Shown: positions 19,400-53,785, counted from the first letter of the stretch. The stretch is 58,867 nucleotides of DNA from a virus (IMGVR_UViG_3300012933_000180:1-58867), one strand, 5' to 3'. Program-made: numbers and translations. The notes: generated by a model not told the origin, from the letters alone.

Positions 19400-19649
19400 A
19401 TTTCTTCAAAGTGGCTTGGTTTGTCTTAGCGTTGTACTTGTACTCGCTAGGTGAACGCCCACTAGCTTTAGCTGCACGGTCTTTGGCTCTACCGTCGTTG
19501 CCTAACGCTTGACGCGCTTCACCCTTTGCGGTGAGTTTGCCGTCTTTCAAATCCCCACGTTTAGTCATTATGGCAATAGCCATACCTTTGGCGTTCTTGT
19601 TGCCTTGAGCGGCAAGCTGCCGAGTCAGTCGTGTTTCTAGTTTAGACAT
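19398..19649 (-). CDS. Small basic Lys/Ala/Gly-rich protein (83 aa)
   Basis: ATG 19649 in TAATG coupling with the upstream gene (the track ORF extends to 19661). MSKLETRLTRQLAAQGNKNAKG... Confidence 0.6.
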   Translation of the reverse strand: MSKLETRLTRQLAAQGNKNAKGMAIAIMTKRGDLKDGKLTAKGEARQALGNDGRAKDRAAKASGRSPSEYKYNAKTNQATLKK

Positions 19650-19903
19650 TAGCACTTCCAAGCGCGCAGTGATTTGTTGATGCGGCTGTTAGGGTCTTTG
19701 GCTGTCTTCTCGCTAGTCAGCTTTTTCTTCATGCCTTCCATACGAGCACAGAATGAGTCACGGCGCGGGCCACCCTCAGGTTGTGGAGCCTTCAAGCCGG
19801 GTTTGCCGGGGTTAGCCTTGTTGTAAGAAGCACGACCCTTGGCGTTTAAACCGCCACTCTCAGCCTTGCCTTCTTTGCGTGTCCATGCGGGCGTCTTAGC
19901 CAT
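19649..19903 (-). CDS. Small basic protein (84 aa)
   Basis: ORF track. MAKTPAWTRKEGKAESGGLNAKGRASYNKANPGKPGLKAP... Starts 1 nt after the giant gene. Confidence 0.65.
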   Translation of the reverse strand: MAKTPAWTRKEGKAESGGLNAKGRASYNKANPGKPGLKAPQPEGGPRRDSFCARMEGMKKKLTSEKTAKDPNSRINKSLRAWKC

Positions 19904-19904
19904 A

Positions 19905-22900
19905 TCAGTCTCCCATCATTCCAGTTACAAATTTCTTGGTGTCCTTGTTGTATTGAACACCGCCCACTGTTTGACGTTCGCGCTGACGCTGTTGCATTGG
20001 AGCTTCAGTCAAACTAGACATTGGCTTACGGGAGAACCCGGCTGCCGAACGGCTGTCTTGTAGCTTACGCCACTTATCACGAGCTTCCAGCATAGAGGTA
20101 GTGTCGCCTGACTTCTTAGCTTGGATGTACTCGTTCTTGATGGAGGTAGCCTTCTCCTCGAACGAAGTCTTAGCCTCGTACAAAGCGTTAGTCTTCATGC
20201 GGCGGATGGTGTCTTGGCTAATCGGCAGACCAATAGCCTTGGCAAAACTTTGCGCAGCGTTGATTTCGTCAGCAGACAGTAGCACGTCACCGTTCTTACG
20301 AGTCACACCTTCGTCAGCCTCTCGAATAGCCTTCATTACATCAGACAAGCCCTTTGGCAGCAGCTTCTCAATACCGCGATAGTATTCGCCACGCTTGATG
20401 TCACCCAAGCCGTCGCCAATCTTCATGGCCATACCTCCGGTAGCACCGGCCAGTACACCAAACCCCATCTCAGCAACACCCTTACGCGACAACTCCATGT
20501 CAGTAAATGGCAGGATAGACAACGCGTTGCCCATACCGATCTTGCCAGACAAGTCCAGACCCATGGCGGTAGGCGTTCCACGCATAATCACTTGAGCCAT
20601 GTCTTCGCCGTAGGCTTCAGCCAGCATGTTGTACGCCGCCAACTCCACATCGGTAGGCTTGTCGTCATCGCCGAAGGCGTCGCCCAGTGCGTTGAGCATG
20701 TAGGCAAAAGCCGCGAAGCCGGGCATACCAACCAAGCCAGCAAGCGCACCCGTGTGGGCAACAGTCAGAGCCAGCGCTTTGCGAGCAGCATGCTGGATTT
20801 CTGGGGTCTCACCTTTTACCGAGTTATGCACCAGCTTAGTCAACAACGTCAACTGGATAAGCTGGAACTTACGGAACTGCAAGGCCACCTTACCGGCGTT
20901 GGTGTTAAACGCACGTGGGGCGTTCAAGCGTGTGTAGTCGCCGTGCGTCTGGCTGATAACCTTACTGGCGTAGTCGATGGCTTCTTGTACGTTGCCGGTC
21001 TTGGCCAACTCCATGCGGTAAGCTGCCATGGCAGTGGACACACGGTTGATAGCTTCCATCTTCTGCGAAGCCGTACGCAGTACACGATCCACAACGTTGA
21101 TGCCACGGGCCGCCGCACTCTCACCAGCAACTTGGAACTTACCCAACTCGGTCTCCATACCGATGTCGATCTGCTGACGATCCACCAAAGTAGAAATCAT
21201 CTTGCGTACATCAGCGGGCACGTTGGCAAAGTCAAACTGCTCGTCAATGCGACTGTTCTTAATCAGGCCGCCAAGTTGCGAGTACGCCTTACCGAGGGCA
21301 GCAACCGACTTGAAGTAGTTGTGGCGACCGGCCATAAATGGAACCGACAGCAAGAATGGCTGTGTCAAGTTCTGGATGTAGTACGTCGGGCTAGTAGCCA
21401 GCATCCACAGAGACGTCATGCGAGCAGTCTTCTCCGCCCAAGTAGACGCGTCGTACGTCATGGACTGCATGTGGCGAGCCCAGATTTCATTGAACAAGTC
21501 AGACTTGGCCGCTTGGTCACCGCCTTCACGAACCTGCTTGCGCATCTCGTTGAACGCATCCATGGTCTGTGAGTTGTACTTGGCAGCAGCCAAGAACTGA
21601 GCATCGGCTCGGCCTTGCGTGGCAAACGAGCGCAGCATGTCGATCTCACCAGCAACACCCTTACGGCGCATCTCTGACTTGCGTGAGCTAGCATCGGCCA
21701 ACGCAGCAAGGTACAGGTCAGACACCAACTCACGAGTCTTAACTAGAGCGGCGCGCTCGTCGCCACTGGGGTAGTTGTTCAGCTCAGAGTCCACAGTAGC
21801 GCGGAGCTTGTTGAACGCTGACAGCAGGCCACCGGCCATGTCATTCTTCGCGTCCTCTTTTGCACGGTACTCGACCTCACCACCCTTGAACTGAGCAGCC
21901 AACTGGTCACGCAGCTCGATAGCCGACATACGGCTCTCAGCAAAGCTGACGTGGTACTCGTTGGGGTCGTTCTGCATCTTGGCCTGCTCCGCAGGAGACG
22001 CAGCCATGTACTTGGCAGACTTGGCCACCACCACAAAATCACCGAAGCGACGCAGTGGAGCGTATGGCAAGAACTCGTTAGACGAGAACAAACGTGTGTA
22101 CTCTTTGAGTTGAGCAGCCTTGGCCTTGTTGAGCTTGTCGACTTTACCTTGGTCACCCTTGTCCTGAGCATGCTTGATAAGCGCGTCGTACTCAGAGTTG
22201 GTAGCTTCGATCAGCGTGGCCTTCTTATTGGCCAGCATGGAGTCGCCATGCTTGAACACTTCACGAATCCACTCTTGAGATTCCTCGGACAGTCGGTTGA
22301 AGCGCTGCTCCATCACTGGATCAGGTGCGACTTTTGTCGCGGTAGCTGCGCGCCAGTCAGGGCTGAAACCCCACTTGGCTTCGCGTGTCATGTCATACAC
22401 AAAACGGTTTGCGCTGGCAGCACCAGTACCACGGTCAGCATCAGGGATGCGGTTGTACAAGCTGGCGATACGCTCGACCTCGCGCTCCTCACGACCCACC
22501 ATGGCAGCTCGCTCACGGTAGATTTTGAGAATCTTGCTGGCGGACTTAATACCTTGCTTGACTGCACGGGACAGCAAGTCCTCGGTGAACACCACAGTGT
22601 TCAGTGCTTTGTCAGCCGTGGCAGACACGGCCTCAGTCAGCAGCTTAGCCGCAGGTGAGTTTAGGAGGGTTTCTTTATTCCCTTGGGCAGTTCCACCCCC
22701 TGAGCGGATTTGGCGAACATCTCCGCCAGCTTGGGGTTTGGTCGAAACTTGTCCTGACTTAGCACTTTGTTTTTTGGCATAGTCTGTTTGTTTAACTTCT
22801 GCATGTACCTTCTCCATGAACGCCGCAGCTTGCGGCAAGTTGTTTTCCTTGAGGAACTTCATGCCTGCGTCAGAGGCAGTGAACGCCCACAACTGCGCAA

Positions 22901-25900
22901 ACAGTTCTTCGCGGACACGGTCAGCCGTCATACCCTCGTTGTCTTCCAACGGGTAGAACATCAGCTCAGCCAATGGTGACTCAGGGTCTGCTTTAACGTG
23001 AGCCAACAACTCAGCCACGATGTCGCCCTTAGGCATGGCAGAAACTGTGCCATTCTTGAACTTCAAGTTGAACTGAGGCTCGCCGGAGTATAGGCCGCCG
23101 TTTTCCAAGCCCTCGATGGCGTGGCCGATTTCGTGCAGCGTAGCAATAGTGGCATCGTACTCAGAAGCCAGAGCGTCAGCGCTAAACACGATTGCGCGTT
23201 CACCATCAATGGTGGTGTAGATAGCGTCCCAAGCCACAGGGTCGTTCGTTACATACCAAGCGTCGATAGCCTTCACAGTGTGAGACAGACCGGACTTGTG
23301 CAAAACCGCCACAGCTTTGACCACACCTTTGTGATCGAGCAAGTCTTGGAGCGTAGTCTCTTCGGCGGCAAAGTTGTTGCCTTCACCATCACGCATCGGG
23401 ATGGCCGAGCGCTTCTCGTAGATGTCGCCTGTCAGCTCTTTGGTGACGTTAGTGTCTTCGACTTCCTCGGCTTGGTCGATACCGAAGTCTTCTACCTTGG
23501 CTTCCTTAGATGCTCTGGTTTGCTTAGCTTCAACCTTCTTCAGCGTTACTTGTAGCTTGGCTTCTTGCTCCACAATAAGTTTGGCAAGTCGTGTTTCCAA
23601 GGATGGGTCTTCCTCGACCATGGCTTTCAACGCATCAATAGCGTCTAAGATTCCTATGATTGAGTTGTTCTGAGCTTCAGTAGCTGCGTTGGCAGTATCG
23701 CCAATACCGGCCTTGGCGTTACCTTGTTTCCACAAAGTAGACTGGTCATCGCCATACCCAAGGGTGCCGCTTTCTGAAGCATCAACACCAAGCTCGCGCA
23801 GCTTAGCCGCAACCTCAGCCGGAATTTCTTCCCCTGTGGTAGATACCTTTTTCTTGGAAAAGTCCGCTACTTCAAGCAGTGACCGCGCTTGTGCAGGGCT
23901 CATACCCATTTCAACAGCAGCAGCCACCAGCTCGGTAGTGCTTCCGATACTACGTACTGTTTTAGCTGTAATGCCGTACTGAGCTCCAATTTCATCAGCC
24001 ACTTTGCCAGTCAGACCGTATGGAGCATTTTTCATCGCCGCCAAATACTGATTGGCAATCTTAATGTCACGTTCAGGGTTCGTGCTAGTAGCAAAGCGAC
24101 GTTTCATCACGGCTTCGACGGCTGCTTGACTTTGTTCGTCGTTAAGCATCTCTACATCAGACAGCAGTGACGTACCTTGCTGACCTTGAGTATCACCCTC
24201 GGACTTAAGGAGTTCTTGAGACTCGGCAGTGTTGCCAGTCAACTCACCCAAGGCCAGCTGGTCTTCCAACGAAAGGTTGGATACACGCTCCGCAGGGATG
24301 CCTTCTTGAACGGCAGTGTCCTCTGTGGTTTCTGGGGCCACGTATGCAGTTCCCTGCTGTGGTTGATTAAACACCACGCGGCGCTTGCGCGTTACAACGG
24401 GAGCTTGTTGGTTGGCACCAGTTCCGAGAAGTGAAACTTCTGGGCCACTTGATGGAGCGATGGGGGCAACTCCACCCACTCCCCCAACTCCTTGGGCGAC
24501 ATTAGCATTTGATCCAGTAGGAGCCACGCCTCCTGATACGACACCGCCCCCAACATCCACGCTTGGTGCAACTCCGGTGTCAGTGGGAACTGTTGTGCCG
24601 ACATTTTGTTGATCCTTAGGTACGCGGTACGCCTTGCCTACTTTGGCAACACGCTGCTTTTCTTGGAAGTCTGCTTCGATCTGAGCCAGAGTTTTCTCTA
24701 CGGCTCCATAACGGTTCTTCTTCAGCTCAGCGGCCACCTCACCCAACTGGGCGGGGGTAAGCAATTCATTACCCACAAGGTCGACAGCCTTGGTGAACAG
24801 GTCGATGCGTTGCTGGATTGGCGTACCTTTCTTGGACGTCAATTTCAGCTTGTACTTTTCGGCAGCTTGGGTCAACTCATCAGCAATGTCGCCGGTAGTA
24901 GTCTGGGCCGCAGTCTCGGCTTGCGTAGCAGCAGGAGGCACGTACCCGGGGTATCGGGCTTTAAGTGTGTCTTCTGGGGTAAGCGCGGCAGTTCCGTCTG
25001 ACGTGACGTTGATAGCCTCTGAGGAAGGGCGAACCGATCCATCAGGGTAGGTAATCATGTTGCCAGCCATGGGGTCGTACCCAATACCCAGCAATGGTGG
25101 GCGCTGTACTAACTGGTCATCCGCAGTGGGGTTAGCCCCGCCGAGCAAGTTGACCGTATGCGAACGGTTGTTCAGGTAAGCAACACCGCCACCACCAATG
25201 CCGCCGAGAGCGCCACCCATCAGGGCAGAGCCAAACACGCCTTTGCTGCGGTCAATCGTGGGGTCGTACTGGTGCGCAGCAATGTTGGCCGAAGCCTTAG
25301 TCGCACCTTCTTCACCGAACTCACTGGCAAATTCTTTGGCAGCCAGCTTGCGGATACCCTGCTTACCAGCACCAGCCATAACGGCTTCCATACCAGTACC
25401 GCCAGTGATTGCGCCGATCAGCGCTGGAACCACGGACGCATCACGTGCAGCAGCACGGGCAAGCATTTCCTTTTGTTCCTGTGGAACATTGGGGCTAGCC
25501 ATGACTTGGGCGTAGGCATCAGCCGCAGCATCACCGCCGCCAGCAGCACCGCTCATAGCAGCACCAGCACCACGGCCAGCCCATGTAGAACCCTTAGCGC
25601 CAAGGCCCGCCAGCTCAGCAGCACCAACAGCAGTCTTAACGCCACGACCGATAGGGCCGACGTTACCGACAATCTTGGCAGCAGTCTGGATAGGGGAGGT
25701 GACGATGTACTTACCAACACCCTTGGCAGCTTCCCAGCCACCCTCGTCGATGGCTTGATTCAGCTCACCTTCAGATTGCTTGACGATGTCACTTTGGTTT
25801 TGCTCACCCTCAGTGATGATGGATTGCAGACCGCGAGACAGTGGGTTATCCACGGACACGAAGTCGCTCATGGATTTGGCCAAGCCTAAGCCAGAGTTAA

Positions 25901-26066
25901 CCGCCGTGATGACGGTGTCATTGGCTACCGCAAACGGGTTGCGGGTTTTAGGTGCTGTCTTAGCCTTTGGCCCGGCTTCGATTTCATCCCACACACTACG
26001 CGTGGAGGTGTCCGCTTTAGGCAAGCTAGGTTTGCCAGATTCAATCTCATCCCAAATGCTTGCCAT
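19905..26066 (-). CDS. Giant internal virion/ejection protein with PLxRFG motif (2053 aa)
   Basis: Uninterrupted 6.2-kb ORF. PLRRFG at nt 22041..22058. HEIGH at 23121..23135. Gly/Ala-rich hydrophobic N-terminal third. Several TM-like stretches in the C-terminal quarter. Last large gene of the virion arm. Confidence 0.85.
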   Translation of the reverse strand: MASIWDEIESGKPSLPKADTSTRSVWDEIEAGPKAKTAPKTRNPFAVANDTVITAVNSGLGLAKSMSDFVSVDNPLSRGLQSIITEGEQNQSDIVKQSEGELNQAIDEGGWEAAKGVGKYIVTSPIQTAAKIVGNVGPIGRGVKTAVGAAELAGLGAKGSTWAGRGAGAAMSGAAGGGDAAADAYAQVMASPNVPQEQKEMLARAAARDASVVPALIGAITGGTGMEAVMAGAGKQGIRKLAAKEFASEFGEEGATKASANIAAHQYDPTIDRSKGVFGSALMGGALGGIGGGGVAYLNNRSHTVNLLGGANPTADDQLVQRPPLLGIGYDPMAGNMITYPDGSVRPSSEAINVTSDGTAALTPEDTLKARYPGYVPPAATQAETAAQTTTGDIADELTQAAEKYKLKLTSKKGTPIQQRIDLFTKAVDLVGNELLTPAQLGEVAAELKKNRYGAVEKTLAQIEADFQEKQRVAKVGKAYRVPKDQQNVGTTVPTDTGVAPSVDVGGGVVSGGVAPTGSNANVAQGVGGVGGVAPIAPSSGPEVSLLGTGANQQAPVVTRKRRVVFNQPQQGTAYVAPETTEDTAVQEGIPAERVSNLSLEDQLALGELTGNTAESQELLKSEGDTQGQQGTSLLSDVEMLNDEQSQAAVEAVMKRRFATSTNPERDIKIANQYLAAMKNAPYGLTGKVADEIGAQYGITAKTVRSIGSTTELVAAAVEMGMSPAQARSLLEVADFSKKKVSTTGEEIPAEVAAKLRELGVDASESGTLGYGDDQSTLWKQGNAKAGIGDTANAATEAQNNSIIGILDAIDALKAMVEEDPSLETRLAKLIVEQEAKLQVTLKKVEAKQTRASKEAKVEDFGIDQAEEVEDTNVTKELTGDIYEKRSAIPMRDGEGNNFAAEETTLQDLLDHKGVVKAVAVLHKSGLSHTVKAIDAWYVTNDPVAWDAIYTTIDGERAIVFSADALASEYDATIATLHEIGHAIEGLENGGLYSGEPQFNLKFKNGTVSAMPKGDIVAELLAHVKADPESPLAELMFYPLEDNEGMTADRVREELFAQLWAFTASDAGMKFLKENNLPQAAAFMEKVHAEVKQTDYAKKQSAKSGQVSTKPQAGGDVRQIRSGGGTAQGNKETLLNSPAAKLLTEAVSATADKALNTVVFTEDLLSRAVKQGIKSASKILKIYRERAAMVGREEREVERIASLYNRIPDADRGTGAASANRFVYDMTREAKWGFSPDWRAATATKVAPDPVMEQRFNRLSEESQEWIREVFKHGDSMLANKKATLIEATNSEYDALIKHAQDKGDQGKVDKLNKAKAAQLKEYTRLFSSNEFLPYAPLRRFGDFVVVAKSAKYMAASPAEQAKMQNDPNEYHVSFAESRMSAIELRDQLAAQFKGGEVEYRAKEDAKNDMAGGLLSAFNKLRATVDSELNNYPSGDERAALVKTRELVSDLYLAALADASSRKSEMRRKGVAGEIDMLRSFATQGRADAQFLAAAKYNSQTMDAFNEMRKQVREGGDQAAKSDLFNEIWARHMQSMTYDASTWAEKTARMTSLWMLATSPTYYIQNLTQPFLLSVPFMAGRHNYFKSVAALGKAYSQLGGLIKNSRIDEQFDFANVPADVRKMISTLVDRQQIDIGMETELGKFQVAGESAAARGINVVDRVLRTASQKMEAINRVSTAMAAYRMELAKTGNVQEAIDYASKVISQTHGDYTRLNAPRAFNTNAGKVALQFRKFQLIQLTLLTKLVHNSVKGETPEIQHAARKALALTVAHTGALAGLVGMPGFAAFAYMLNALGDAFGDDDKPTDVELAAYNMLAEAYGEDMAQVIMRGTPTAMGLDLSGKIGMGNALSILPFTDMELSRKGVAEMGFGVLAGATGGMAMKIGDGLGDIKRGEYYRGIEKLLPKGLSDVMKAIREADEGVTRKNGDVLLSADEINAAQSFAKAIGLPISQDTIRRMKTNALYEAKTSFEEKATSIKNEYIQAKKSGDTTSMLEARDKWRKLQDSRSAAGFSRKPMSSLTEAPMQQRQRERQTVGGVQYNKDTKKFVTGMMGD

Positions 26067-26087: not shown

Positions 26088-27305
26088 TTATTTTTTCAAC
26101 CATGTCAGCTCGGATTTATCCACCTTGCTGTTTGGGTAACGTTTATTGTAGTCGTCCACGTCTTTCTCGGTAAGTTTTTTACCCTTGTATGTCCCATCCA
26201 AGATCGTAGTCTCGGCATCTGCGGGAGCTACGCCACGGCGGGCGAAGAACTGAGTTTGTTGCTGGCGGATTTCATCCGACGTAGAACCTTGCTTGACAAG
26301 CTCAAGTTCAGTCTTAGCCCAGTCACCTTCAACGGCGCTGCGGCCTCCAGTCTTAGCACCAGTAACTTTGGGGAACAGGCTAACGGGCTTACCCTTGCTG
26401 TCCATCGGGCCTTGCATGACACCGATTTCACCGTTCTTCTTGATGCCGTAGATTTTGCCGTCTTCGTCTTGTGAAAGAATTTGCTGGAAACCTTTCAGGC
26501 GATCACGAGCTTCGTCAGCCTGAGCACCCCACAGACTAGACTTAGCTGCCAGTTCTTTGGCGTCCAACGCATTACGCTCTTGGTAAACGCCGAGCATGCC
26601 AGTTTTGTACGTACGGTCAGTATCACCAGCCTTACGCTCAAGGTTGAGTTTGCCATAAACAGTGGGAGCCGCAGATGCCAGAGCGTCCATCTTCATGGCT
26701 TGCAGAGCGTCGCCAAGTTTGTCTTGGGGGATCATCATGTCGCCAGCGCCGGGGCGGGTCACCTTGTACAGCATCTCACCCTTGGGGCCAGCCACTGGGG
26801 TAGCAGTCACGCCTTTTGTACTGGTTGGGCCGAACTTATCTGCGTTGAACGCAGCCAAACCCTTGGTGATACCTTCCAAGTTGTTGGTTCGGATGGCTTC
26901 TTCCAACGGTGCAAACGATTCGTTGATGGAATCTACAGCGCTGGATTCACGTTCAGTACGCGCAGCTTGCTTAAGCTGAATAGACTTGGCAATAGACTCA
27001 GGCGTGTTGCGCGCAGCATACACACCGGCCATGTCAGAAAGAATTTCATGCTGCGCACGAGGCGTACGAACCGCTTTAGACGACTCGCCATCAATACCGC
27101 CGGTAGCGCCTTCGTAGGAAGTAGCCACGTTTTCGCGTTTGATGTTAGCCATTTGTTGGCGCACAGCGTCTTCCTCGGCGTATTTAGCACGCTCACGCGC
27201 CTGCTGTTCCTTGCGGAACTTGGCGTCGTCCATACGCTCGAGGTCTTGGATGCCTCCGGAAATGCCTTGGCCAACGCCACCCAAAATGCCCATGAGATTG
27301 GCCAT
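26088..27305 (-). CDS. Internal virion/ejection protein candidate (405 aa)
   Basis: ORF track. Gly-rich N-terminus MANLMGILGGVGQGISGG and coiled-coil-rich body. Position directly upstream of the giant gene. Confidence 0.6.
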   Translation of the reverse strand: MANLMGILGGVGQGISGGIQDLERMDDAKFRKEQQARERAKYAEEDAVRQQMANIKRENVATSYEGATGGIDGESSKAVRTPRAQHEILSDMAGVYAARNTPESIAKSIQLKQAARTERESSAVDSINESFAPLEEAIRTNNLEGITKGLAAFNADKFGPTSTKGVTATPVAGPKGEMLYKVTRPGAGDMMIPQDKLGDALQAMKMDALASAAPTVYGKLNLERKAGDTDRTYKTGMLGVYQERNALDAKELAAKSSLWGAQADEARDRLKGFQQILSQDEDGKIYGIKKNGEIGVMQGPMDSKGKPVSLFPKVTGAKTGGRSAVEGDWAKTELELVKQGSTSDEIRQQQTQFFARRGVAPADAETTILDGTYKGKKLTEKDVDDYNKRYPNSKVDKSELTWLKK

Positions 27306-29470: not shown

Positions 29471-29632
29471 TCAGGTCGCAGGCGATTCGTCTGCTTTTTT
29501 CTCAGCTTCTTCTAGCTGTAGCCAACACTGATGTACGTTTGTGGCTATACCTGTGGCTAACTCAGAAGTCAGCTTACTGCCGATGTTGTTGGTCAAGGCC
29601 GTGGCCAAGACTTGCATAATTTGTTCACGCAT
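29471..29632 (-). CDS. Hypothetical small protein (53 aa)
   Basis: Hand-translated: MREQIMQVLATALTNNIGSKLTSELATGIATNVHQCWLQLEEAEKK... The ATG overlaps the fibre stop (ATGCGTGA). Confidence 0.4.
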   Translation of the reverse strand: MREQIMQVLATALTNNIGSKLTSELATGIATNVHQCWLQLEEAEKKADESPAT

Positions 29633-31544
29633 TGTTTGCTTCCAGTTGGGCTAGCCGCGCATCTATTTCTTTCAGCGCAGTGATGATAGGAGCTACGTAC
29701 GAAGCGTAGTCAGCAGCGAGTTTACCTTCAAGTGGGCCAGAACCAGTGGTGTACACGAGGGAAGACTCTTCTCCGGCCACATCCATCACGTCGTTGGCAA
29801 TCAAACCATACATCTTTTTCTTAAACCCAAACAGGCTGTCGTCTAGGTAGTAATACGTAACTGGGTTAAGTTGGCGGATGAAATCCATACCAAGGGTGTT
29901 TGGGGTGATGTCCTTTTTAAGAGACCTGTCTGATGTTTGGAAAATCGTATAGCCGACGTTGTTTGTGCCGCTTCCAGACACAGAGAAACCTACACCGGGG
30001 AATGTGCAAGATGCGCTAAAACTTTTACCAAACGACGCCAAATATGCCAATGTATCGGACGTGGTGCTGTAGTTAGTCAGGCTGGAAGTCGAGGAAGTTA
30101 TGTAGCCGCTTGGGTTGCTAGAGTTGTATGGGGTGTAACCCAAAGCACCGGTCACGTTTCCGCTAGTCAAGGACAGGGAGCCGCCAAGTGTAAGAAACCC
30201 GTCAGTGCTAACGTCCCCAGATAGTGATATACCAGACACTGTACCGGTACCACGAACTCGACTTACCGTACCGCCACCGATAGCTCCAATAGACACCCAA
30301 GTGCCATCATTGCGTAGGTACTTGTCAGTGCCACCATCAGGGGGCAACACCGCAACTCCGTTGTACGTCAAATACCCTTTGCCAATACTGATAGCTGTAG
30401 AAGTTGTGGTTGCTGCGGCAACAACGATACCCGCACCGGACGTAGAGTCCGACGTAAACGAACCGCCGTAAAAACCTACACCCACCACACCAACAGCGTT
30501 GTTGTTGTAGAACCCGCCTGAGGCTGTGCCTAGCACGCCTACGTTCCAAGCAGAATTTACTGAGTTAGCACGACCAAGCAACCCGACGCGGGCGTTAGTG
30601 CCTGCACTCGTAGCACCAACACCGAACACACTATAGTCCAGATAGAAAGGGGTGCCGTCAATAATTACTTGGTATGAGGTGGCAGCTTGGCCTTCAAAGT
30701 AAGCGTCGCCGCCGGTATTGATATCGCCCGAGAATACAGCATTGCCTGTGTTGTCAATCGAGAAAGTAACCACGCCAGACTTGACGCCGGTGATACCGTT
30801 CTCAGTCAATACCACGCCAGACCCACCAGTCACTACACCTGTGGAGGAGTTCCAAGTAACGCTGCCCGCTTGAATACCACCGGTATTGGTAACGGAAACC
30901 ACACCAGCTAAGGTATAGCTAGATGACGCTGACAGTTTGCTGGATACTTGAGATAGTGCGCTGGCCGCGTCTGAAGAAGCGTTGGACACATCCGTCAGAA
31001 CCGAACTGACAGTCTGCGATCCAAGGTACGCACCCGTCTGAATAACTGAGTTGGCCTTGATTGTGCCTAGCACCGTGAGGTTGCCCGTAGCAGCTTCTAT
31101 GGCCAGTGTGGTCTGCCATGCGCCAGTCGACTTGTTGTTGTAGCCAGCGATGATGCCTGTGGACGTAATGCCAAGTGCCGTACGGAAGTCGCCAGAATAC
31201 GCTGCTGTAGTGCCTAGGATCGAAGCATCTTTGTGCTGGAACGACATATACGTCGCCGCAGTCTTGATGATCGAATCGCTGTTACGCGCCCCAGATACAG
31301 CGGTTATAGCCCCAGAAACCAAATCGTCCTTTAGGTTCTGTACTGTGTACGCGCCGCCAAAGTTGGTGATATTGGTTGTACTGCTGGGAGACCCGAACGT
31401 GGTTGCCCCGCCAACTTGTGGAGCCTGCTCAACCGTAGCCGTAGCCTGAATTGAGTCGATGGTGATCTGCACGTTGCGCGAAAGCGCGTCCAACACGGCG
31501 CGGACTTGAGGGTCTGCAACCGCATGGGTTGGTGGGATGGGCAT
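29625..31544 (-). CDS. Tail fibre/spike with C-terminal S74 intramolecular-chaperone domain (639 aa from ATG 31544)
   Basis: C-terminal SDRSLKKDITPNTLGMDFIRQLNPVTYYY...KKKMYGLIANDV matches the endosialidase-type self-cleaving chaperone. Ser/Thr/Gly-rich body. The track ORF start at 31589 overlaps the upstream gene. Confidence 0.8.
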   Translation of the reverse strand: MPIPPTHAVADPQVRAVLDALSRNVQITIDSIQATATVEQAPQVGGATTFGSPSSTTNITNFGGAYTVQNLKDDLVSGAITAVSGARNSDSIIKTAATYMSFQHKDASILGTTAAYSGDFRTALGITSTGIIAGYNNKSTGAWQTTLAIEAATGNLTVLGTIKANSVIQTGAYLGSQTVSSVLTDVSNASSDAASALSQVSSKLSASSSYTLAGVVSVTNTGGIQAGSVTWNSSTGVVTGGSGVVLTENGITGVKSGVVTFSIDNTGNAVFSGDINTGGDAYFEGQAATSYQVIIDGTPFYLDYSVFGVGATSAGTNARVGLLGRANSVNSAWNVGVLGTASGGFYNNNAVGVVGVGFYGGSFTSDSTSGAGIVVAAATTTSTAISIGKGYLTYNGVAVLPPDGGTDKYLRNDGTWVSIGAIGGGTVSRVRGTGTVSGISLSGDVSTDGFLTLGGSLSLTSGNVTGALGYTPYNSSNPSGYITSSTSSLTNYSTTSDTLAYLASFGKSFSASCTFPGVGFSVSGSGTNNVGYTIFQTSDRSLKKDITPNTLGMDFIRQLNPVTYYYLDDSLFGFKKKMYGLIANDVMDVAGEESSLVYTTGSGPLEGKLAADYASYVAPIITALKEIDARLAQLEANNA

Positions 31545-31548
31545 GAAC

Positions 31549-33552
31549 TCAGACACTACGCAGCTCCGACATGGCATCGGCCATAGCAAATTCTTCCACG
31601 ATACCGGCGGTCTGGAATCTCACAGACCAGCGCAGCGAACGGTTGCCTGAAGGCAGTCGGTAGTAGCCTGTACCTGAAGCAGTGAATTGATACCATTCGG
31701 TATCGTCAGCATACAGGGTAACAGTTGTGGACGCAGTGCATTTGATGTACGCCGCGCCGAAGTTGACGTAGTCACCAAGAACAAAGTCCTTGCTCCACCA
31801 ATCCAGTGTGTAGTAGCTGCCCCCACGAAAACGGTAGACGTTCGCTCCCTTAGAGTAGTACAGCGTGTCCTGCACCGGCAGGTAGAACATGGAGTCGTAC
31901 GTCTCGTTGAATTGAGTCAGCGTACCAGCAGCCTCGTCCAGTCGAATCACGATACCCTTGGCGGATGCAGAAGACACCATAACAAGGTAGCCGTCCGTGT
32001 AGCCGAACCGAGCGTCCGATGCGATAGCCGAAATCGTGTTACGCCAGTTTTCGCGAGAGTAGAACTTCTGGCTCAGAGCCATGGTGGCCTGAGACCCTTG
32101 TACCAAGACAACGCCGTCGTTCGAGGCGTAGGCCACTGCACCCTCTAAGTTGGCCATCAACTTGTGGGATATACCGGCTTGAGGTAGAGGAAGCTTCTGC
32201 GAGGCCATGTTGGCAGGCACGCTGCCGAGAATCATGAACGCATTAGCTTTCGTGGTTACAACCAAGGACTGGGCGTCTGCGCAGATTCCGACCACGGGGT
32301 GCGGAAACGACTTGATGTACTGCCACGAATGTGGGCGGTAGGGCTCGCTCAGGTACACCTTGTTGTCTTTATAAGCAGCGAACACACCGTTAGGCATGGC
32401 GGTCAAACCGAGCATACCGGTAACTGGAGGCTCCCATTCAAGGGAGGGCAGTAAAGTACCAACGTCGGAAGACTTGTACGTCTTGTCTTCGTACACCGTA
32501 GTGCTGCCGGACTTCAGCGTGGCGGCTACTTTAAAGTAGTTAGGGTTTGTACCAAAGGTACGGTAAATGTTTGTGGACGCTCTGGGCTTGTACCCCGTGA
32601 ACGTAGGGACAGTCGTACCGACTTCGACGTACTGCATGTACGTAACACCAACAGCGTTAGCTGGCGAGGGTGCAGACTCTTCGCCAAAGTCGTTCACCAT
32701 GGTGTAGACATAGGCTCTGTTTTCTACGATACCCCAAGAGAACGTTACCTTTCCGGCGTCCGTCAACGTCATCTCAAGACCGCCGGGGAACGCTGAGCTA
32801 CGCGTAGGCGTAGTCGACCCAGACGAAATGGTTACGTTAAAGAACTCTTTGTTTGGCGACACCGTAGTGTCTTTCATAATGATCTGGCACACCAGCTTGG
32901 CGTCCGTCGGAGTGCCCGAAGGAGTCCCTGCTTCAGTCACAGTAGTAGTCTCGCCAGTTTCTGCGTTGTAGCTAGTAACCGCAGTCTTCCCGTCGTTGTA
33001 AGCAGTTTTGGTAGGTGGAGTAAACGTGTACTCTTTCCACGCAGTCACTTCAACAAGACTACTTAGCGTGCTGGCTTTGTCGTACTGCTTACCGTCGAGC
33101 TCGTACCAAGCGTCCAACGTAACGGATTTAGTGGGGTAGTCGGGCAGCGCATCGCGCTCCTTGATGGTGAGAGTAACCTGTGTGTCTGGCGTAGGTACGC
33201 CAACTAACCATGAAGACGATGGTTGCCCGCCGGTAGATGCCGCTAGGCTGTACTGCGTAACCTTGAACCCGTCTGAGTTCATAAAGTACACACGGCCAAA
33301 GCTGTCTTCCAACACGGGGCCTTTGTAGGCGTAGGTCTCAGTAGGCCACGTAAAGAAGTTTGTGCCTTCTTCCGTGTAAATGCCCTTGACCGTGTTGGCC
33401 ATGGTCTTCAGCAACGCGCCATCTTTCAACGGGCGAAGGTCGTTCTGAGCAAAATCGCAGTTAATTGCCTGCTGTGCGTTAGCCTCCGAAAGCTTGTACT
33501 TAGGGATGTTCGGCAGTTCGCCGGAGAAGTTTTTCAGAACGATCGAAGTCAT
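31549..33552 (-). CDS. Large tail protein (667 aa), possibly nozzle/tubular-type
   Basis: ORF track. Size and position next to the fibre gene. No diagnostic motif. Confidence 0.5.
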   Translation of the reverse strand: MTSIVLKNFSGELPNIPKYKLSEANAQQAINCDFAQNDLRPLKDGALLKTMANTVKGIYTEEGTNFFTWPTETYAYKGPVLEDSFGRVYFMNSDGFKVTQYSLAASTGGQPSSSWLVGVPTPDTQVTLTIKERDALPDYPTKSVTLDAWYELDGKQYDKASTLSSLVEVTAWKEYTFTPPTKTAYNDGKTAVTSYNAETGETTTVTEAGTPSGTPTDAKLVCQIIMKDTTVSPNKEFFNVTISSGSTTPTRSSAFPGGLEMTLTDAGKVTFSWGIVENRAYVYTMVNDFGEESAPSPANAVGVTYMQYVEVGTTVPTFTGYKPRASTNIYRTFGTNPNYFKVAATLKSGSTTVYEDKTYKSSDVGTLLPSLEWEPPVTGMLGLTAMPNGVFAAYKDNKVYLSEPYRPHSWQYIKSFPHPVVGICADAQSLVVTTKANAFMILGSVPANMASQKLPLPQAGISHKLMANLEGAVAYASNDGVVLVQGSQATMALSQKFYSRENWRNTISAIASDARFGYTDGYLVMVSSASAKGIVIRLDEAAGTLTQFNETYDSMFYLPVQDTLYYSKGANVYRFRGGSYYTLDWWSKDFVLGDYVNFGAAYIKCTASTTVTLYADDTEWYQFTASGTGYYRLPSGNRSLRWSVRFQTAGIVEEFAMADAMSELRSV

Positions 33553-33578: not shown

Positions 33579-34193
33579 TCAAGCAAGCACAGAGCTGTCC
33601 GCACAAGCTGCAAGAGCTAAATTAGTATGCTTGACGCGATCATCGTACCCGATAGTTCCGCCGTTGATTTTCTTAGTTAGCGCAACCCAGTCACCCGCCT
33701 CAGCCAGTTTGTTGCAACCGTGGGTAGACCAGAACCAGCCAGCAGTCAAAGCAGCGTACTTTGGAGTAGCCACCAAATCAGGGTTCATTACGAAGTCCAC
33801 GCCGAGAGCTTGCCCCGCATGGTAGTAATTCGCATGGCCAGTAAGCTGAATACAACCACGACCCCTAAACCTAAAGCCATCACCGCTAAGCTCGTCGCGA
33901 TTGCCCATGCGTGAAGCGTAGACCATATTGGCGATTTTCTTGGGATTGCCTGCATACTGGTTAGCCAATTCAAGAGTAGGGAAACGCTTAGGCCATAGCT
34001 TCATCAGCGTGGCGGCTCGGTAGTTAAGGTTCTCTTCCAAGACTTTGAAATGACCGCATTCGTGCCCGCACTGGCCGATGAAGGCAGCCTGCTGTCTGGG
34101 CGTAGCGATCATAAATTGGGCAAACGTATCGTTGAGGGCCGGAACCCACTCGATGCCGATGTGCAGTTTTTGTAGTTGCTCAGCGTTGACCAT
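33579..34193 (-). CDS. Endolysin, glycoside hydrolase family 19 (204 aa)
   Basis: QCGHECGHFKVLEENLNY, FRGRGCIQLTGHANY, AGWFWSTHGCN and INGGTIGYDDR are GH19 (class I chitinase-like) lysozyme signatures. Confidence 0.9.
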   Translation of the reverse strand: MVNAEQLQKLHIGIEWVPALNDTFAQFMIATPRQQAAFIGQCGHECGHFKVLEENLNYRAATLMKLWPKRFPTLELANQYAGNPKKIANMVYASRMGNRDELSGDGFRFRGRGCIQLTGHANYYHAGQALGVDFVMNPDLVATPKYAALTAGWFWSTHGCNKLAEAGDWVALTKKINGGTIGYDDRVKHTNLALAACADSSVLA

Positions 34194-38617: not shown

Positions 38618-39472
38618 TTAGAACGTGATGGAGCCAGAAGACGTCCATTTGTAGACGCGGTAGCCGCCAGCGACTGTAATTGTTGGGGAACCTGTCGTGG
38701 CTGTAGCTGCAGAATAAGCATCGGAGTACCGAATAATAACAACCCCTGATCCGCCAGCGCCGCCAGCGTTGCCGATGATTGAATCGTAACCACCGCCATC
38801 ACCACCTGTACCAGAGTTTGCAGCGCCGCTTTGAATGTTGTCCAGATAATCTCTTACACCTCGACCACCAGCAGCGTAAGTAACTGAAGACCCGCTAATA
38901 GAATTTGTAGTGCCCGCACCGCCAGCAACGTAATCTCCGGAGATTCCAGTGGCACCTACTCCACTAGAGCCGCCTCCGCCTCCGCCAGTATAAAGGGTGT
39001 TTCCGCCGCCTGTTCCACCAGCATATCCTTCAACTGGTGAATAGCTTCCAGAGTTACCAGAGCCACCTGCTTTTGCTCCGCTATAACCGCCACCGCCACC
39101 GCCAGAGCCGCCAGAAGCGCCAGTACCTCCGCTATATCCACCGCCACCTCCACCGCCAGTAGCTGTAATAGTTGAAAAAACAGAGTTACTGCCGTTAGGA
39201 GCGGGGGTTGAGGTATATGATGAACTACTAGCGCCAGCGCCACCAGCGCCGACTGTCACCGTGTAGGCCGTTCCAGTGGAAATAGAAAAACCTGTTGCGG
39301 TTCTGTATCCGCCAGCACCGCCGCCGCCGCCAACGTCCCAACCGCCGCCGCCGCCGCCCGCGACAACAAGATACTCAACCGCAGTAGGAGGTATAACTAT
39401 AATCGGCCAATTACCGGCCCCTTTAGCCTGCCCCTGTTGTGTCAGCGTAAAAATTCCTGAGTATTGAGCCAT
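38618..39472 (-). CDS. Glycine-rich protein, paralogue 2 (284 aa)
   Basis: VEYLVVAGGGGGG...GGAGGSGVVIIRY...GSPTITVAGGYRVYKWTSSGSITF. Same length and layout as 39482..40336. Confidence 0.75.
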   Translation of the reverse strand: MAQYSGIFTLTQQGQAKGAGNWPIIVIPPTAVEYLVVAGGGGGGWDVGGGGGAGGYRTATGFSISTGTAYTVTVGAGGAGASSSSYTSTPAPNGSNSVFSTITATGGGGGGGYSGGTGASGGSGGGGGGYSGAKAGGSGNSGSYSPVEGYAGGTGGGNTLYTGGGGGGSSGVGATGISGDYVAGGAGTTNSISGSSVTYAAGGRGVRDYLDNIQSGAANSGTGGDGGGYDSIIGNAGGAGGSGVVIIRYSDAYSAATATTGSPTITVAGGYRVYKWTSSGSITF

Positions 39473-48609: not shown

Positions 48610-49578
48610 TCAGCCCTTGACGACTGCGTATGTCAAAGCTTGTGGCTTGACAGTCTTACGACCGTAAACCATCAAACCGCGCACCAATGTACCGAAATCG
48701 TTGGGGTTAGGGATAGACTCAACCTTGTTGATTTGCGATGCAAAAGTCATGGCGGAACGCTGACCAGCGATCATCACGTGACGCTTCACTTTACCGGAGT
48801 CAGTGCCACCGGTGTAGTTCTTGTCAGCTGCGGCTTTTGGCAACAGGTTCGACACATAGATGTCGAAACGGTCGATGCGGCCGATCTTGCCGTTACGCAA
48901 GATAGACTGGCTGTCACCAGTCACATAGGCTTGTGACAATGGGCTAGACATCAACAACTGACGCTCGTAAGGAGTCAAGACCAAGAAACGGTCTGTCTCA
49001 GGCACGTTTTGCTCGTCCAACACAGAAGACATCGCAGTGATGGTCTTCAGGATTTCAGGAGCGTTAGAGCTGGCAGCGAAGTCCAAAGGTGATGCGTCTG
49101 TACCCAAGTTGAAGGCACCGCTCAACACACCAGCGGTGTCGCCGATGTTGTCTGCGTCAGCAGCGCTAAATGTGTTCAAGAAGCAGTCGCGGTCAACGGC
49201 GATTTTCATCTGGTTGGCAGCGTCAGTAGTGAACGTGTCCATCAAGTTAGGCTGAGATTGGTACTCGAGCACGTCAGAGACGTTCACGCCAAAGTAGAAG
49301 CCCTTGTCGATTTGCAACTCGATGACTTCAGGAGTTGGAACTTCGTAAGTCAAAGACTGACCAACGGTATAAGCGTTGATGCTGATCGTTGGGATGTTGT
49401 TGATAGTGACCTTGTCACCCATGTTTTTGATGTCGCCTTCCCAGTTGGTATTGGAAACATCGCCGAACACGGTGTTAGCGTAGAACTTGACGTTCAACTT
49501 GCTAGACCAGATCGCTGGAATGAACGTACCTGAGTACGCGGGAGAGGTGTTAAAAGGGGACTGAACAGAATAAGACAT
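48610..49578 (-). CDS. Major capsid protein (322 aa)
   Basis: FIPAIWSSKLNVKFYANTVFGDV...GDKVTINNIP matches the P22-coat/HK97-fold capsid N-terminal pattern. Follows the scaffold gene. Bracketed by hairpins. Confidence 0.85.
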   Translation of the reverse strand: MSYSVQSPFNTSPAYSGTFIPAIWSSKLNVKFYANTVFGDVSNTNWEGDIKNMGDKVTINNIPTISINAYTVGQSLTYEVPTPEVIELQIDKGFYFGVNVSDVLEYQSQPNLMDTFTTDAANQMKIAVDRDCFLNTFSAADADNIGDTAGVLSGAFNLGTDASPLDFAASSNAPEILKTITAMSSVLDEQNVPETDRFLVLTPYERQLLMSSPLSQAYVTGDSQSILRNGKIGRIDRFDIYVSNLLPKAAADKNYTGGTDSGKVKRHVMIAGQRSAMTFASQINKVESIPNPNDFGTLVRGLMVYGRKTVKPQALTYAVVKG

Positions 49579-51706: not shown

Positions 51707-53785
51707 TCAAGAGAAATTATCGGTGATCGGCGCGCCGTTTTCAAGTGTCTGTTGGTTGAACACTGGAGAACCTTGCTGACCACCGGGCAACGCGCTTGAC
51801 TGTGGAGCTGGCATGTTGGCCTGCATCATCTGTTGAATCTGCTGGTCGACTCGGAATTTCTCACGAGGCGGCACGATGTCATCAGCGTTCATATCAAGCT
51901 GTTTGGCGTTTTCGCGCAACAGTGTTGCACGGCCTTCGATGCCCATGATGCCCATGTCGATCGGGTTGGCTGTGGCCATCAAGAACTCGTTGCGGCGAAC
52001 CTGTGCAGACTCCTTGGCGATGATGCTGTTAGCACCGCGCGCAACGATCGTCACGTCACCCTTCAACTCTGGGTCTTGGCTGTACTTCATGTTGTAGAAA
52101 TACTGGCGCTCTAGCAACGGAGTCATCACGTTCGTGTCGATGTTAGACACAACTTGCTTCATCGACTTATTCGCGTTGGTCATGAGCATGCTCATGCCGG
52201 ACGCTGTGCGGCCTGCGCCACCTGCTGGGGCGGACCCAGTCATATAGCGAGGAATACCCGAATACTCGTCGGCCAACACCGAAAACTTCTCGTAGACGGC
52301 CATCAACTCTTGCGCGTTCGAGTTCGGCTGGAAGAATCCAATTGGCGCAGCACTCGAGCCCATTGGGTCTGATGTGACTTGGTGAATCTTCCATGGGTAC
52401 AAATTGGTGATGTCTTCGCCTGCTGGCACGCGGTCGACGTTGACGTACATCTGAGGGCCCGACGCGATGCCCATGTTGTTAGCCAGAGCTCGTGCTGAGC
52501 TGTTGACCATGTCTTGGCAGTCCTTGATGAGGTCGTACGTGCTGTTGCCCCAGAACGTGCCGGGGATGTCTTCGTACGATGCCTTGTAGTAAGGCTTCTT
52601 GCCCAAGGGGTGGTAGTTCAGCGAGGCCTTGATGACGTACTGACCGATCAACCAGCATTCGCAGTAATACTGCTTAGCAATGTCTGGTACTTCGGCGTCC
52701 GACATACCCCAGTCGCGCAACACTTGGCCTGACACTGTGCCCCAGAACTGGAGTGCGTCGATCAAGTGTTCGCTGTTGTTCATAACGGCTGTGGTGCTGC
52801 GACCTTCGGCCTGAGCCTTTGTCGAGTCAACGATGAGCCACTCTTGCAAGCCGCCGCGACCGTAGTCTTCCAGCACTTGGCGAATAGCAGCGTCGTCATA
52901 TCCTTCAACGCCGATCAGCTCTTCGAGGTCTGTCTGGCGCAACTTGTGGCGCTCGATCAAGTAACCGTCGTCGATGCCTGTAGACGCAGGCGATGGGTAG
53001 ATCATGAATGGGTCAACGCGTTCCCACTCGAGTACCAAGTCGTCTTCGATGACTAACTGGTAGCCGCCCTGTGCGTTAGGGTTCCACTTCATCGTTGGCT
53101 TGCGGCGAACCACTGGGCCTTTGATGAACGCGCATGGGAATGTCGTGATGTCGTCGATGAACTGGTCCATCGCTTTCATGAAGCCGCCCTCGCAGAGCTG
53201 GTCTTCCATCTTGCCTTCCATCTGGCGAACTTGGAACTTAGCTTCTTCCTGCAAGTTGTACATGTACGACTCGCGCAATTCATTCAAGAACTTACGCAGC
53301 TGCATAGGTGGCAGCGCTTGGCCAGTCACCTCAATCACTTTGGCCAACTGCTGAATCGCATCTTGGCGCATCTCTTCGATGATGTTCGGTGGCAGCGTTG
53401 GCACTGGTGTTGGACGAATCGTCCATGGCTTCTCGCTACCTTGGTTCATCAACACATCACGCAACCAGCTAGCCGCAGCGCGGCATTTGTTACTGGTCAA
53501 CATCATGTAGATTTCAGAGCCGCCGGTCTCACGAATTTTCGTAAGCACGTCTGGATCGTATTCACCGCGACGTGATCGCACCGCTTTAAACATGCGAGAC
53601 TCAACGGTCTGCTCTTTGGCTTTGCGAGCTTCAGTCCAACAGTTGCGTACATAAGACGCAAGGGACTTCACCAACGGTTGGGCCTGCGCCAACTCAGACG
53701 CTCTGCGTTGCTGATCTGCGATACCTTGTGCCGACATGGCTGGCAGGATACCGCCCATACTGATGCCTAGGTTTGGAGGAGTCAT
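51707..53785 (-). CDS. Portal protein (692 aa)
   Basis: Size and position between terminase large subunit and scaffold. No single diagnostic motif read by eye. Confidence 0.75.
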   Translation of the reverse strand: MTPPNLGISMGGILPAMSAQGIADQQRRASELAQAQPLVKSLASYVRNCWTEARKAKEQTVESRMFKAVRSRRGEYDPDVLTKIRETGGSEIYMMLTSNKCRAAASWLRDVLMNQGSEKPWTIRPTPVPTLPPNIIEEMRQDAIQQLAKVIEVTGQALPPMQLRKFLNELRESYMYNLQEEAKFQVRQMEGKMEDQLCEGGFMKAMDQFIDDITTFPCAFIKGPVVRRKPTMKWNPNAQGGYQLVIEDDLVLEWERVDPFMIYPSPASTGIDDGYLIERHKLRQTDLEELIGVEGYDDAAIRQVLEDYGRGGLQEWLIVDSTKAQAEGRSTTAVMNNSEHLIDALQFWGTVSGQVLRDWGMSDAEVPDIAKQYYCECWLIGQYVIKASLNYHPLGKKPYYKASYEDIPGTFWGNSTYDLIKDCQDMVNSSARALANNMGIASGPQMYVNVDRVPAGEDITNLYPWKIHQVTSDPMGSSAAPIGFFQPNSNAQELMAVYEKFSVLADEYSGIPRYMTGSAPAGGAGRTASGMSMLMTNANKSMKQVVSNIDTNVMTPLLERQYFYNMKYSQDPELKGDVTIVARGANSIIAKESAQVRRNEFLMATANPIDMGIMGIEGRATLLRENAKQLDMNADDIVPPREKFRVDQQIQQMMQANMPAPQSSALPGGQQGSPVFNQQTLENGAPITDNFS

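Follow-up and report, generated by a model that had tools for sequence, protein, structure and literature searches.

In some podophages, giant virion-borne proteins fill 10 to 20% of the genome, and the authors of a study of phage phi24B explicitly raise the open question of their recruitment, packing, and ejection (bioRxiv 10.64898/2026.04.10.717836). In phage N4, the giant protein gp50 has an N-terminal domain (NTD) that inserts into nanodiscs and for which membrane-spanning helices are predicted at residues 224-278. After it come a low-complexity linker of ~100 residues, the RNA polymerase domain, and two subdomains, C1, in which an HExxH is conserved, and C2, which is alpha-helical, measures ~110 kDa, and is without structural homologs (PMC13434306). 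The N4 model postulates that the gp50 NTD associates with gp51, encoded immediately upstream; gp51 and gp52, both smaller than gp50, form the tunnel, and gp50 has its C-terminal half in the cytoplasm (PMC13434306). A second point of reference is the polyvalent proteins, giants that some phages presumably package in the virion and inject, in which a metallopeptidase (MPTase) clade with an acidic residue three positions past HExxH has been unified with anthrax lethal factor (LF) (Iyer, Burroughs, Anand, de Souza & Aravind 2017, J Bacteriol; PMC5512222). Here we describe a giant gene on a viral stretch of 58,867 nt (IMGVR_UViG_3300012933_000180:1-58867; "the window" denotes this whole stretch), an open reading frame (ORF) on the minus strand (19905..26066, -) that encodes 2,053 aa. 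Sequence, structure models, and analogy together make it probable that its product is a phage-type polyvalent protein with an ejection layout resembling that of N4 gp50 without the RNA polymerase cargo, with a tandem leader that would dock on the protein encoded upstream and a protease that would be active. Giant phage polyvalent or ejection proteins with an MPTase are already known; new is a tandem leader, seen across the family, that is exchanged between phages as one unit with the tail of the upstream gene, and in the literature searched there was no mention of "PLxRFG" or of such a leader. The docking cassette that leader and tail may form is the novel, testable part of these findings.

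Layout of the giant protein

A first-pass annotation, made from the sequence alone, had described one uninterrupted ORF taking up about a tenth of the genome, and the ORF does run without a break over ~10.5% of the window, closing the minus-strand structural module as its last large gene. From N to C terminus the protein would consist of a disordered leader with two aromatic/acidic peptides, a Gly/Ala-rich N-domain, a linker, a zincin, and an all-alpha PLxRFG module of ~920 residues. The landmarks named in that annotation were recovered where it had placed them: two copies of S(I/V)WDEIE(S/A)G at aa 3-11 and 24-32 (nt 25971..26060), HEIGH at 23121..23135 (-) within a full TLHEIGHAIEG at 23109..23141, PLRRFG at 22041..22058 (-), and a Gly/Ala-rich region, which has a Gly+Ala content of 40 to 41% across aa 101-300. 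Its "TM-like stretches" were overstated. On Kyte-Doolittle 19-residue averages, the protein reaches at most 1.55 (aa 1773-1791, within its most hydrophobic segment at aa 1764-1791, 20694..20777, -), and the remaining peaks, at aa 212-230, 277-295, and 1863-1881, lie at 1.0 to 1.4; the hydrophobic segments are only moderately hydrophobic and none is a classical transmembrane helix. A Pfam scan of the giant protein matched no model at all.

The zincin domain, aa 885-1100 (22767..23414, -), contains HEIGH (aa 978-982), the sole HExxH in the giant protein. In 14 aligned orthologs, H978, E979, H982, E1019, Y1038, P1039, E1054, F1056, A1057, and Q1058 were invariant. Searched against solved structures, a profile of the domain matched only anthrax LF (1pwu, E 1.1e-3), followed by PPEP-1/Zmp1 at E ~1; both the degenerate N-terminal copy and the catalytic domain of LF were matched, and the catalytic-domain alignment (LF 723-771) placed LF E735 on E1054 (22905..22907, -), which sits in an ExFAQ helix. 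E735 is the third zinc ligand of LF, after H686 and H690. AlphaFold2 modeled the domain as a small sheet with helices (pLDDT 91.5, pTM 0.89), and a Foldseek search of the PDB with this model returned lethal factor at ranks 1 to 17 (E 4e-3, probability 1.0, TM-score ~0.4), then a putative Bacteroides metallopeptidase, MATCAP, and PPEP-1. No Pfam peptidase family was found for the region at E<=1.

When 1.84 billion cluster representatives were searched, the zincin profile matched 232 proteins; among the best 150 of these, most (~100) were 2,000 to 3,600 aa long with the domain in mid-protein. Residue counts over 157 matched domains of these and related proteins, taken from clusters at <=50% identity, gave near-complete conservation of H978 (143/144) and complete conservation of E979 (144/144), H982 (144/144), Y1038 (147/147), and E1054 (152/152). 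The position three after HExxH was Asp in 141 and Glu in 3 of 144 domains, the window protein having Glu (E985). The resulting signature, HExxHxxD...YP...ExFAQ, agrees with the pattern of the phage MPTase clade, and the HExxxH variants described for polyvalent proteins are present among distant homologs of the giant protein (PMC5512222). An internal zincin had been proposed in the first-pass annotation; its HExxH proved conserved in orthologs and the region folds, as modeled, like a peptidase. Judged by alignment and model, aa 885-1100 is a real, conserved zincin, a gluzincin of the anthrax-lethal-factor type, with H978, H982, and E1054 as predicted ligands and E979 as the predicted catalytic base. 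Because its residues are conserved so strictly, this lethal-factor-like protease is very likely an active enzyme, and the fold points, by analogy, to protein substrates rather than peptidoglycan cross-links.

The conserved N-terminal domain, aa 42-300 (25167..25943, -), is the best-conserved part in all relatives. These comprised 43 homologs of aa 1-1330 and 59 IMG/VR loci, the latter being used because a search with aa 1-330 gave only 3 matches, with G/A-rich words swamping the candidates. The domain follows the series ANDTVI ... GGDAAxxAY ... ExxxExxEEG ... Gly-zipper, with 30 columns invariant in 21 diverse sequences, and its Gly-zipper-like hydrophobic segment (VFGSALMGGALGGIGGGGVAY) occupies aa 277-297 (25176..25238, -). 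No Pfam family covers it, and in the PDB its profile met no solved relative, the only matches (the hydrophobic core of prion and the SMK toxin, E >= 0.2) falling in its low-complexity run of Gly and Ala. The same profile aligned collinearly with aa 231-441 of N4 gp50 over ~190 positions, scoring 17.6 bits through the matched features GG..AY, A..A.R.A...P...G, E..EEG, and KGV..A..GA..G; 2,000 shuffles of the gp50 segment scored -10.0 +/- 4.3 bits with a maximum of 4.9, and none of them (0/2,000) attained 17.6. On this comparison, the N-domain is probably common to the giant protein and N4 gp50, and we claim for the giant protein an N4-like architecture by sequence, without membership. An RNA polymerase domain was found in the giant protein by none of the Pfam, NCBIfam, and PDB searches. 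N4 gp50 itself (L069:524-11026, -) starts with SVFDRLAGFADSV, a stretch that contains two aromatic-acidic dipeptides 7 residues apart.

Domain content was scanned in 17 N-domain relatives. LPD38 and LPD1 each occurred 6 times, ART-PolyVal 4 times, InPase, LPD5, and LPD3 3 times each, MuF_C twice, and LPD37, LPD23, ddrB-ParB, RadC, and DUF6782 once each; GGDEF too occurs among the relatives. Their C terminus is either PLxRFG-type or LPD38-type, two modules that are distinct by the curated models. Beside them, the window's giant protein appears from its sequence to be a stripped-down polyvalent-protein relative, made up of the N-domain, linkers, one zincin, and the PLxRFG module.

Between the N-domain and the zincin lies a variable central region, aa 301-884 (23415..25166, -), which consists of low-complexity linkers and helical segments, is poorly conserved among relatives, and contains no recognized domain. 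Matches of aa 380-880 in the PDB to BiP (E 3e-3) and to a sigma region-4 (E 0.24) were judged unconvincing. One segment within it, ADEIGAQYGITAKTVRSIG (aa ~685-710, window ~23940-24015, -), is helix-turn-helix-like and conserved among close orthologs; all its matches were sub-threshold (Sigma70_r4, E 0.021; SigA region 4 in the PDB, E 0.24).

The C-terminal all-alpha module, aa 1130-2053 (19908..22679, -), was matched by NCBIfam NF032893 (PLxRFG domain, "tail-700") over aa 1334-2029 (19980..22067, -) with 330.8 bits (cut-off 100; E 1.7e-98; profile positions 2-660 of 681), and the PLxRFG domain of the first-pass annotation was thus correctly assigned. Around PLRRFG itself (aa 1337-1342), Y1335, R1340, and G1342 were invariant in the 38 sequences of the module alignment. 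The AlphaFold2 model built with these 38 sequences (pLDDT 77.6, pTM 0.69) is nearly all helical, and its sole three-strand sheet starts at PLRRFG. By tblastn, the C-module was the only part shared with other phage giants (aa ~1250-2040, 23 to 29% identity, at their C terminus), among them those of Agrobacterium phage Atu_ph08, Klebsiella phages LASTA, SopranoGao, and ZX1, Erwinia phages Pavtok and PEp14, Sinorhizobium phage PBC5, Ochrobactrum phage POI1126, and others; nothing N-terminal of query aa ~1200 aligned with these isolated-phage PLxRFG giants. They are annotated variously as methylase, Snf2 helicase, transglycosylase, or "DarB-like antirestriction".

The last of these labels suggests that the giant protein might be a DarB-like anti-restriction protein acting on host restriction systems after injection, since RefSeq relatives bear that name and the best PHROG match was phrog_10089, "DarB-like antirestriction" (E 2e-63). 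Because that match is confined to profile positions 3730-4629 of 4647, the label reflects the shared C-terminal module only and says nothing on the giant protein's function. Pfam, NCBIfam, and PADLOC revealed no methyltransferase or helicase domain, PADLOC giving no match of any kind, and in gp69 of Burkholderia phage JC1, also called "DarB-like", regions resembling a helicase and a methylase are present and a PLxRFG domain is missing. An anti-restriction role is therefore very improbable in our estimation.

Another reading, which takes up the trans-envelope conduit of the first-pass annotation, makes the PLxRFG module itself that conduit for DNA, the equivalent of T7 gp16; the N- and C-terminal hydrophobic segments would span membranes, and the zincin would be a passenger delivered into the cytoplasm or periplasm. 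The module model was strongly matched in BFVD by C-terminal pieces of proteins named "large polyvalent protein-associated domain" (E 3e-53 to 1e-10) and more weakly (E ~1e-5, TMq 0.26-0.44) by T7-like entries under the names "internal virion protein D" and "internal core protein". In favor of a conduit are the matches to "Internal virion protein D" of Roseobacter phage CRP-4 (E ~1e-5, probability 1.0, TMq 0.44), to the Ralstonia phage RSB3 internal core protein, and to a protein of Vibrio phage ICP2, along with the gp16-like position of the gene at the end of the structural module and its conserved Gly-rich, moderately hydrophobic segments. Foldseek, however, found no relative of the module among PDB entries up to April 2026 (best E 0.6, TM-score <0.1), the fold matches at E >= 0.6 (transporters, BDLP) being noise, and the module profile met in PDB sequences only a coiled-coil stretch of influenza HA2 (E ~0.01), which was judged spurious. 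Hydropathy does not exceed 1.55, the giant protein has no lytic transglycosylase or lysozyme match in Pfam or NCBIfam, and N4, the better architectural match, builds its tunnel from gp51 and gp52 while the C-terminal half of its giant protein is cytoplasmic (PMC13434306). With a C-module that has no solved relative, weak fold likeness to internal virion protein D, and modest hydrophobicity, the conduit is unsupported; the modeled link to internal virion protein D is weak, a lead and not a result, and we regard a conduit function as unlikely.

The tandem leader and the upstream gene

Ahead of the conserved R-N/G...ANDTVI start, the relatives of the giant protein carry short, Pro/Lys-rich leaders that very often hold two copies of an aromatic/acidic motif of 5 to 15 residues, 9 to 27 residues apart. 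In the window's leader, aa 1-41 (25944..26066, -), these are SIWDEIESG (aa 3-11; 26034..26060, -) and SVWDEIEAG (aa 24-32; 25971..25997, -), followed by a basic PK-rich tail with a terminal TRN that adjoins the conserved domain; against 1,000 shuffles of the leader, the WDEIE repeat had p<=0.001. With the same number of shuffles for each, a tandem motif was present at p<=0.01 in 25/44 non-redundant leaders and at p<=0.05 in 30/44, and among other leaders some have one longer element, "FDEIRxxxPxxxxLSDxEI", and some a lone aromatic motif. The duplicated motifs are lineage-specific and include SIWDEIE, SVWDEFEGP, IEGFTP, WWKQGSTPV, TPVDYDPFAK, NPFADP(N/D)FG, PRDLFAE, TDWEKG, and NFFDQ(Y/F)DS, along with the pair DWSSFE / DWDSFE. 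A tag common to other virion proteins, comparable to the capsid-targeting sequence of T4, was rejected, WDEIE and motifs like it occurring nowhere else in the six-frame translation of the window. Two IMG/VR loci (L034, L056) have, in place of the short leader and directly before the ANDTVI domain, a segment of ~210 residues that, by eye, reads as a putative muramidase motif (LLGQWGLETGWG).

Two relatives, P0012 (IEGFTP type) and P0004 (SIWDEIE type), are 92 to 98% identical in every region but the leader, where identity falls to 12%; by such alignments the leader evolves as a unit of its own. The gene next to the giant gene on its upstream side (26088..27305, -) encodes a 405-aa protein with a Gly-rich hydrophobic N terminus and then a charged helical region, a candidate docking partner for the leader. 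Its last ~90 aa, which are of type A in the window (...LTEKDVDDYNKRYPNSKVDKSELTWLKK; 26091..26360, -), co-segregate with leader type. On the contigs of P0004, P0012, and P0009, the upstream protein has 405, 447, and 453 aa, respectively. Between the first two contigs (L060 and L061), all nine other neighboring genes compared were 87 to 100% identical and the upstream gene 51%, its identity in pairs with the P0009 contig being 33 to 43%. At the DNA level, the divergent block of L060 and L061 starts a short way into the upstream gene and stops where the leader does, after which identity is ~90%. The giant gene has a second short hypervariable island at aa ~320-375 (window ~24940-25110, -; L060:10963-11120), where L060 and L061 are 49 to 55% identical and the flanks ~90%.

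The last 70 residues of the upstream protein, compared over 13 loci, fell into three clusters that coincided with leader type in 13/13, pairwise scores being 51 to 358 within clusters and at most 38 between them. Type A goes with W-D leaders (window, L060, L002, L001, L004, L005), type B with EGF leaders (L061, L003, L007, L009, L065), and type C with PFI(V/F)S leaders (L062, L066). The bodies of the giant proteins give a tree that differs from these types: types A and B are both represented in each of three clades (L060/L061 at 95% identity, L001/L065 at 72%, L002/L003 at 72%), and the same leader type recurs across clades of <=46% identity. Where the clade is the same and the type different, conservation covers the N-terminal part of the upstream protein but not its C-terminal part; where the type is the same and the clade different, only its last ~60-100 residues are conserved. 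Because conservation by type and conservation by clade split the upstream protein in this way, the mobile unit is, on the alignments, the last ~90 aa of the upstream protein plus the first ~40 aa of the giant protein. At a further locus (L025), the upstream ORF ends with EDGYRFKGGDPSDASNWEKM, the unit that is duplicated in the leader of another giant protein (L022), and W-E-K/R copies flank the gene boundary (NWEKM before it, MAGPWEKY ... KPWERY after it); motif units can therefore sit on either partner.

A leader without any docking function, as a fast-evolving repeat hitch-hiking with the end of the upstream gene in one recombination block, would agree with the contiguity of leader and tail in the DNA (gap ~10-20 nt), with the L060/L061 divergent block being a single stretch, and with the 14/44 leaders that lack a repeat at p<=0.05, some of which (type C, PFIVSHD...) have one aromatic motif only. 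The right-hand boundary of the block, however, falls inside the giant gene at the junction of leader and domain and not between the genes, the same pairing is seen in three clades with <=46% identity to other clades, and in 25/44 leaders both copies are alike within the protein yet lineage-specific. Selection on both leader copies is suggested because they stay alike within a protein while differing between lineages. We argue for a functional pairing because the boundaries of the unit lie inside both genes, at domain junctions, because the pairing recurs in independent clades, and because the two copies stay alike, and we consider simple hitch-hiking a rather improbable account.

That the leader docks on the C-terminal ~90 residues of the upstream protein has, from the sequence comparisons, slightly better than an even chance of being right. 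The duplicated tag had earlier been proposed as a packaging or portal-docking signal; docking gains support in an altered form, since what the tag co-varies with is the C-terminal domain of the upstream protein (13/13 loci) and not the portal. A partner on the host side was weighed as well. Colicin translocation domains are disordered N termini with short Trp/acidic epitopes, and the leader motif DWSSFE resembles GWSSE, which we take to be the TolB box of ColE9, so that the leader peptides might capture a host periplasmic or envelope protein, as colicin Tol/Ton boxes do, and thereby drive translocation. Yet giant proteins with 95% identity can have different leader types, and leader type tracks a phage-encoded partner domain, with no link to a host protein, and such capture seems to us highly unlikely.

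Going further, the duplicated leader peptide and the last ~90 residues of the upstream protein could form an exchangeable plug-and-socket cassette that chooses the giant cargo for the ejection apparatus, and the same principle, two aromatic/acidic peptides preceding a conserved N4-gp50-like N-domain, could operate in many podophage polyvalent proteins and explain their loading into the capsid and pull-out; we advance this tentatively, as an idea with somewhat less than an even chance. The locus offers a candidate interface that is small and defined genetically, with ~40 residues of leader facing a domain of ~90 residues in at least three natural specificity types. If the docking is true, this interface could be a handle for loading foreign cargo into phage particles.

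Proposed ejection route and genomic setting

Virion packaging, ejection, membrane insertion, the protease substrates, and the contact between leader and partner are steps that we infer, and they would combine as follows. The giant protein would be packed into the capsid, where its two leader peptides would dock on the upstream 405-aa protein, at the ~90-residue domain that forms its C terminus. At infection it would exit through the tail behind this partner, the N-domain would associate with the inner membrane, and the zincin and C-module would arrive on the cytoplasmic side, where the protease might cleave the polyprotein itself, host proteins, or both.

Several observations weigh against this picture. 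The match between the N-domain and gp50 is weak, its 17.6 bits carrying a high composition-bias term, and neither hhalign nor hmmsearch found a signal between the zincin and C-module profiles and C1/C2 of N4 gp50. The hydrophobic segments are below the usual transmembrane threshold, and the giant protein is, by its recognizable domains, barely "polyvalent" because only a single enzymatic domain can be recognized in it. Leader and upstream C-tail are ~10-20 nt apart, and because the two pieces are adjacent in the DNA their co-transfer is predicted, and their co-inheritance expected, from linkage alone. The literature searched contained no virion proteomics for a PLxRFG-type homolog or for this phage. 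Two other giants have been detected in purified virions by mass spectrometry (MS), JC1 gp69 (4,515 aa), with 51 unique peptides (PMC9144972), and phi24B gp47 (2,811 aa), which is abundant, carries LPD5, LPD1, LPD38, and MuF-C, and is proposed by its authors to be an ejection protein (bioRxiv 10.64898/2026.04.10.717836). Because neither protein matches NF032893 or, by hhalign, the C-module profile, this virion evidence transfers by analogy only, and JC1 gp69, which lacks a PLxRFG domain, was not used as direct evidence.

The giant gene ends a minus-strand structural module that includes a terminase (53827..55296, -), a portal-like gene (51707..53785, -), and a capsid protein (48610..49578, -), after which come several virion proteins. 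Further along are a GH19-type (GH19/chitinase-like) lysozyme (33579..34193, -), an adjoining "internal virion protein" (31549..33552, -), and a tail fiber (29625..31589, -), and between the tail fiber and the giant gene, in transcription order, are genes for proteins of 141, 481, 89, and 405 aa. Genes for replication lie on the plus strand, namely a family-A DNA polymerase, an SNF2-type helicase, and a DUF927 primase-helicase. Because the genes scanned included neither a tape measure nor a sheath, this phage probably has a podovirus-like particle, as judged from gene content. No prohead protease able to cleave the leader was recognized among the head genes scanned, and a megablast search with 20 kb of the window gave no DNA-level match in the phage collection.

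Next in the module comes a gene for an 84-aa DUF6321 protein (19649..19903, -; Pfam E 1e-18), which starts directly after the stop of the giant gene. A DUF6321 gene is also the immediate downstream neighbor of the giant gene in L060, L061, L062, L065, and L066, and the window's DUF6321 sequence matches the C termini of much longer PHROG families. In L066 (the P0030 contig), a phage integrase gene (L066:10763-11770) lies shortly downstream of the giant gene and DUF6321, and because of it at least some phages of the group may be temperate. The lysozyme slot has been refilled by a non-homologous gene, since an unrelated Phage_lysozyme (PF00959; L062:265-708) stands in L062 where the window has its GH19-type lysozyme. 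Three consecutive genes of the structural module (37208-38608, 38618-39472, and 39482-40336, -) match phrog_2295, whose function is not known, and look like tandem paralogs.

Comparison with known systems

The zincin resembles the M34 peptidases anthrax lethal factor and PPEP-1 in its HExxH, in the Glu of an ExFAx helix, and in its zincin fold. It differs from them in a TM-score of only ~0.4 with 12 to 15% identity, in a longer spacing from HExxH to the third ligand (72 residues), and in being embedded in a 2,053-aa phage protein. By sequence it is of the lethal-factor type in its predicted working and is not filed as M34, because no Pfam peptidase model matches it and the PDB profile match is marginal (E 1e-3). 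Unlike T7-like gp16, the giant protein has no N-terminal lytic transglycosylase domain in Pfam and NCBIfam scans.

The isolated-phage PLxRFG giants have the same C-terminal PLxRFG module, and several are far larger (495 kDa in Lastavirus phages; a 14.5-kb gene in POI1126). JC1 gp69 and phi24B gp47 are likewise giants encoded at the end of podophage structural modules. With the polyvalent proteins (PMC5512222), the giant protein shares a central HExxH...E metallopeptidase, and relatives with the same N- and C-modules carry LPD1/3/5/38, ART-PolyVal, InPase, MuF_C, and ddrB-ParB; it stands apart through having one recognizable enzyme domain, the zincin, and an N-domain without a Pfam family.

N4 gp50 is longer, at 3,500 aa with an RNA polymerase, whereas the giant protein has 2,053 aa without one, and N4 has no PLxRFG feature. 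The two proteins have their parts in the same order, an N-terminal domain that associates with membranes in N4 and may do so here, long linkers, an HExxH subdomain, and an alpha-helical C-terminal part of ~1,000 residues with no structural homolog, and each phage encodes a mid-sized protein directly upstream of its giant.

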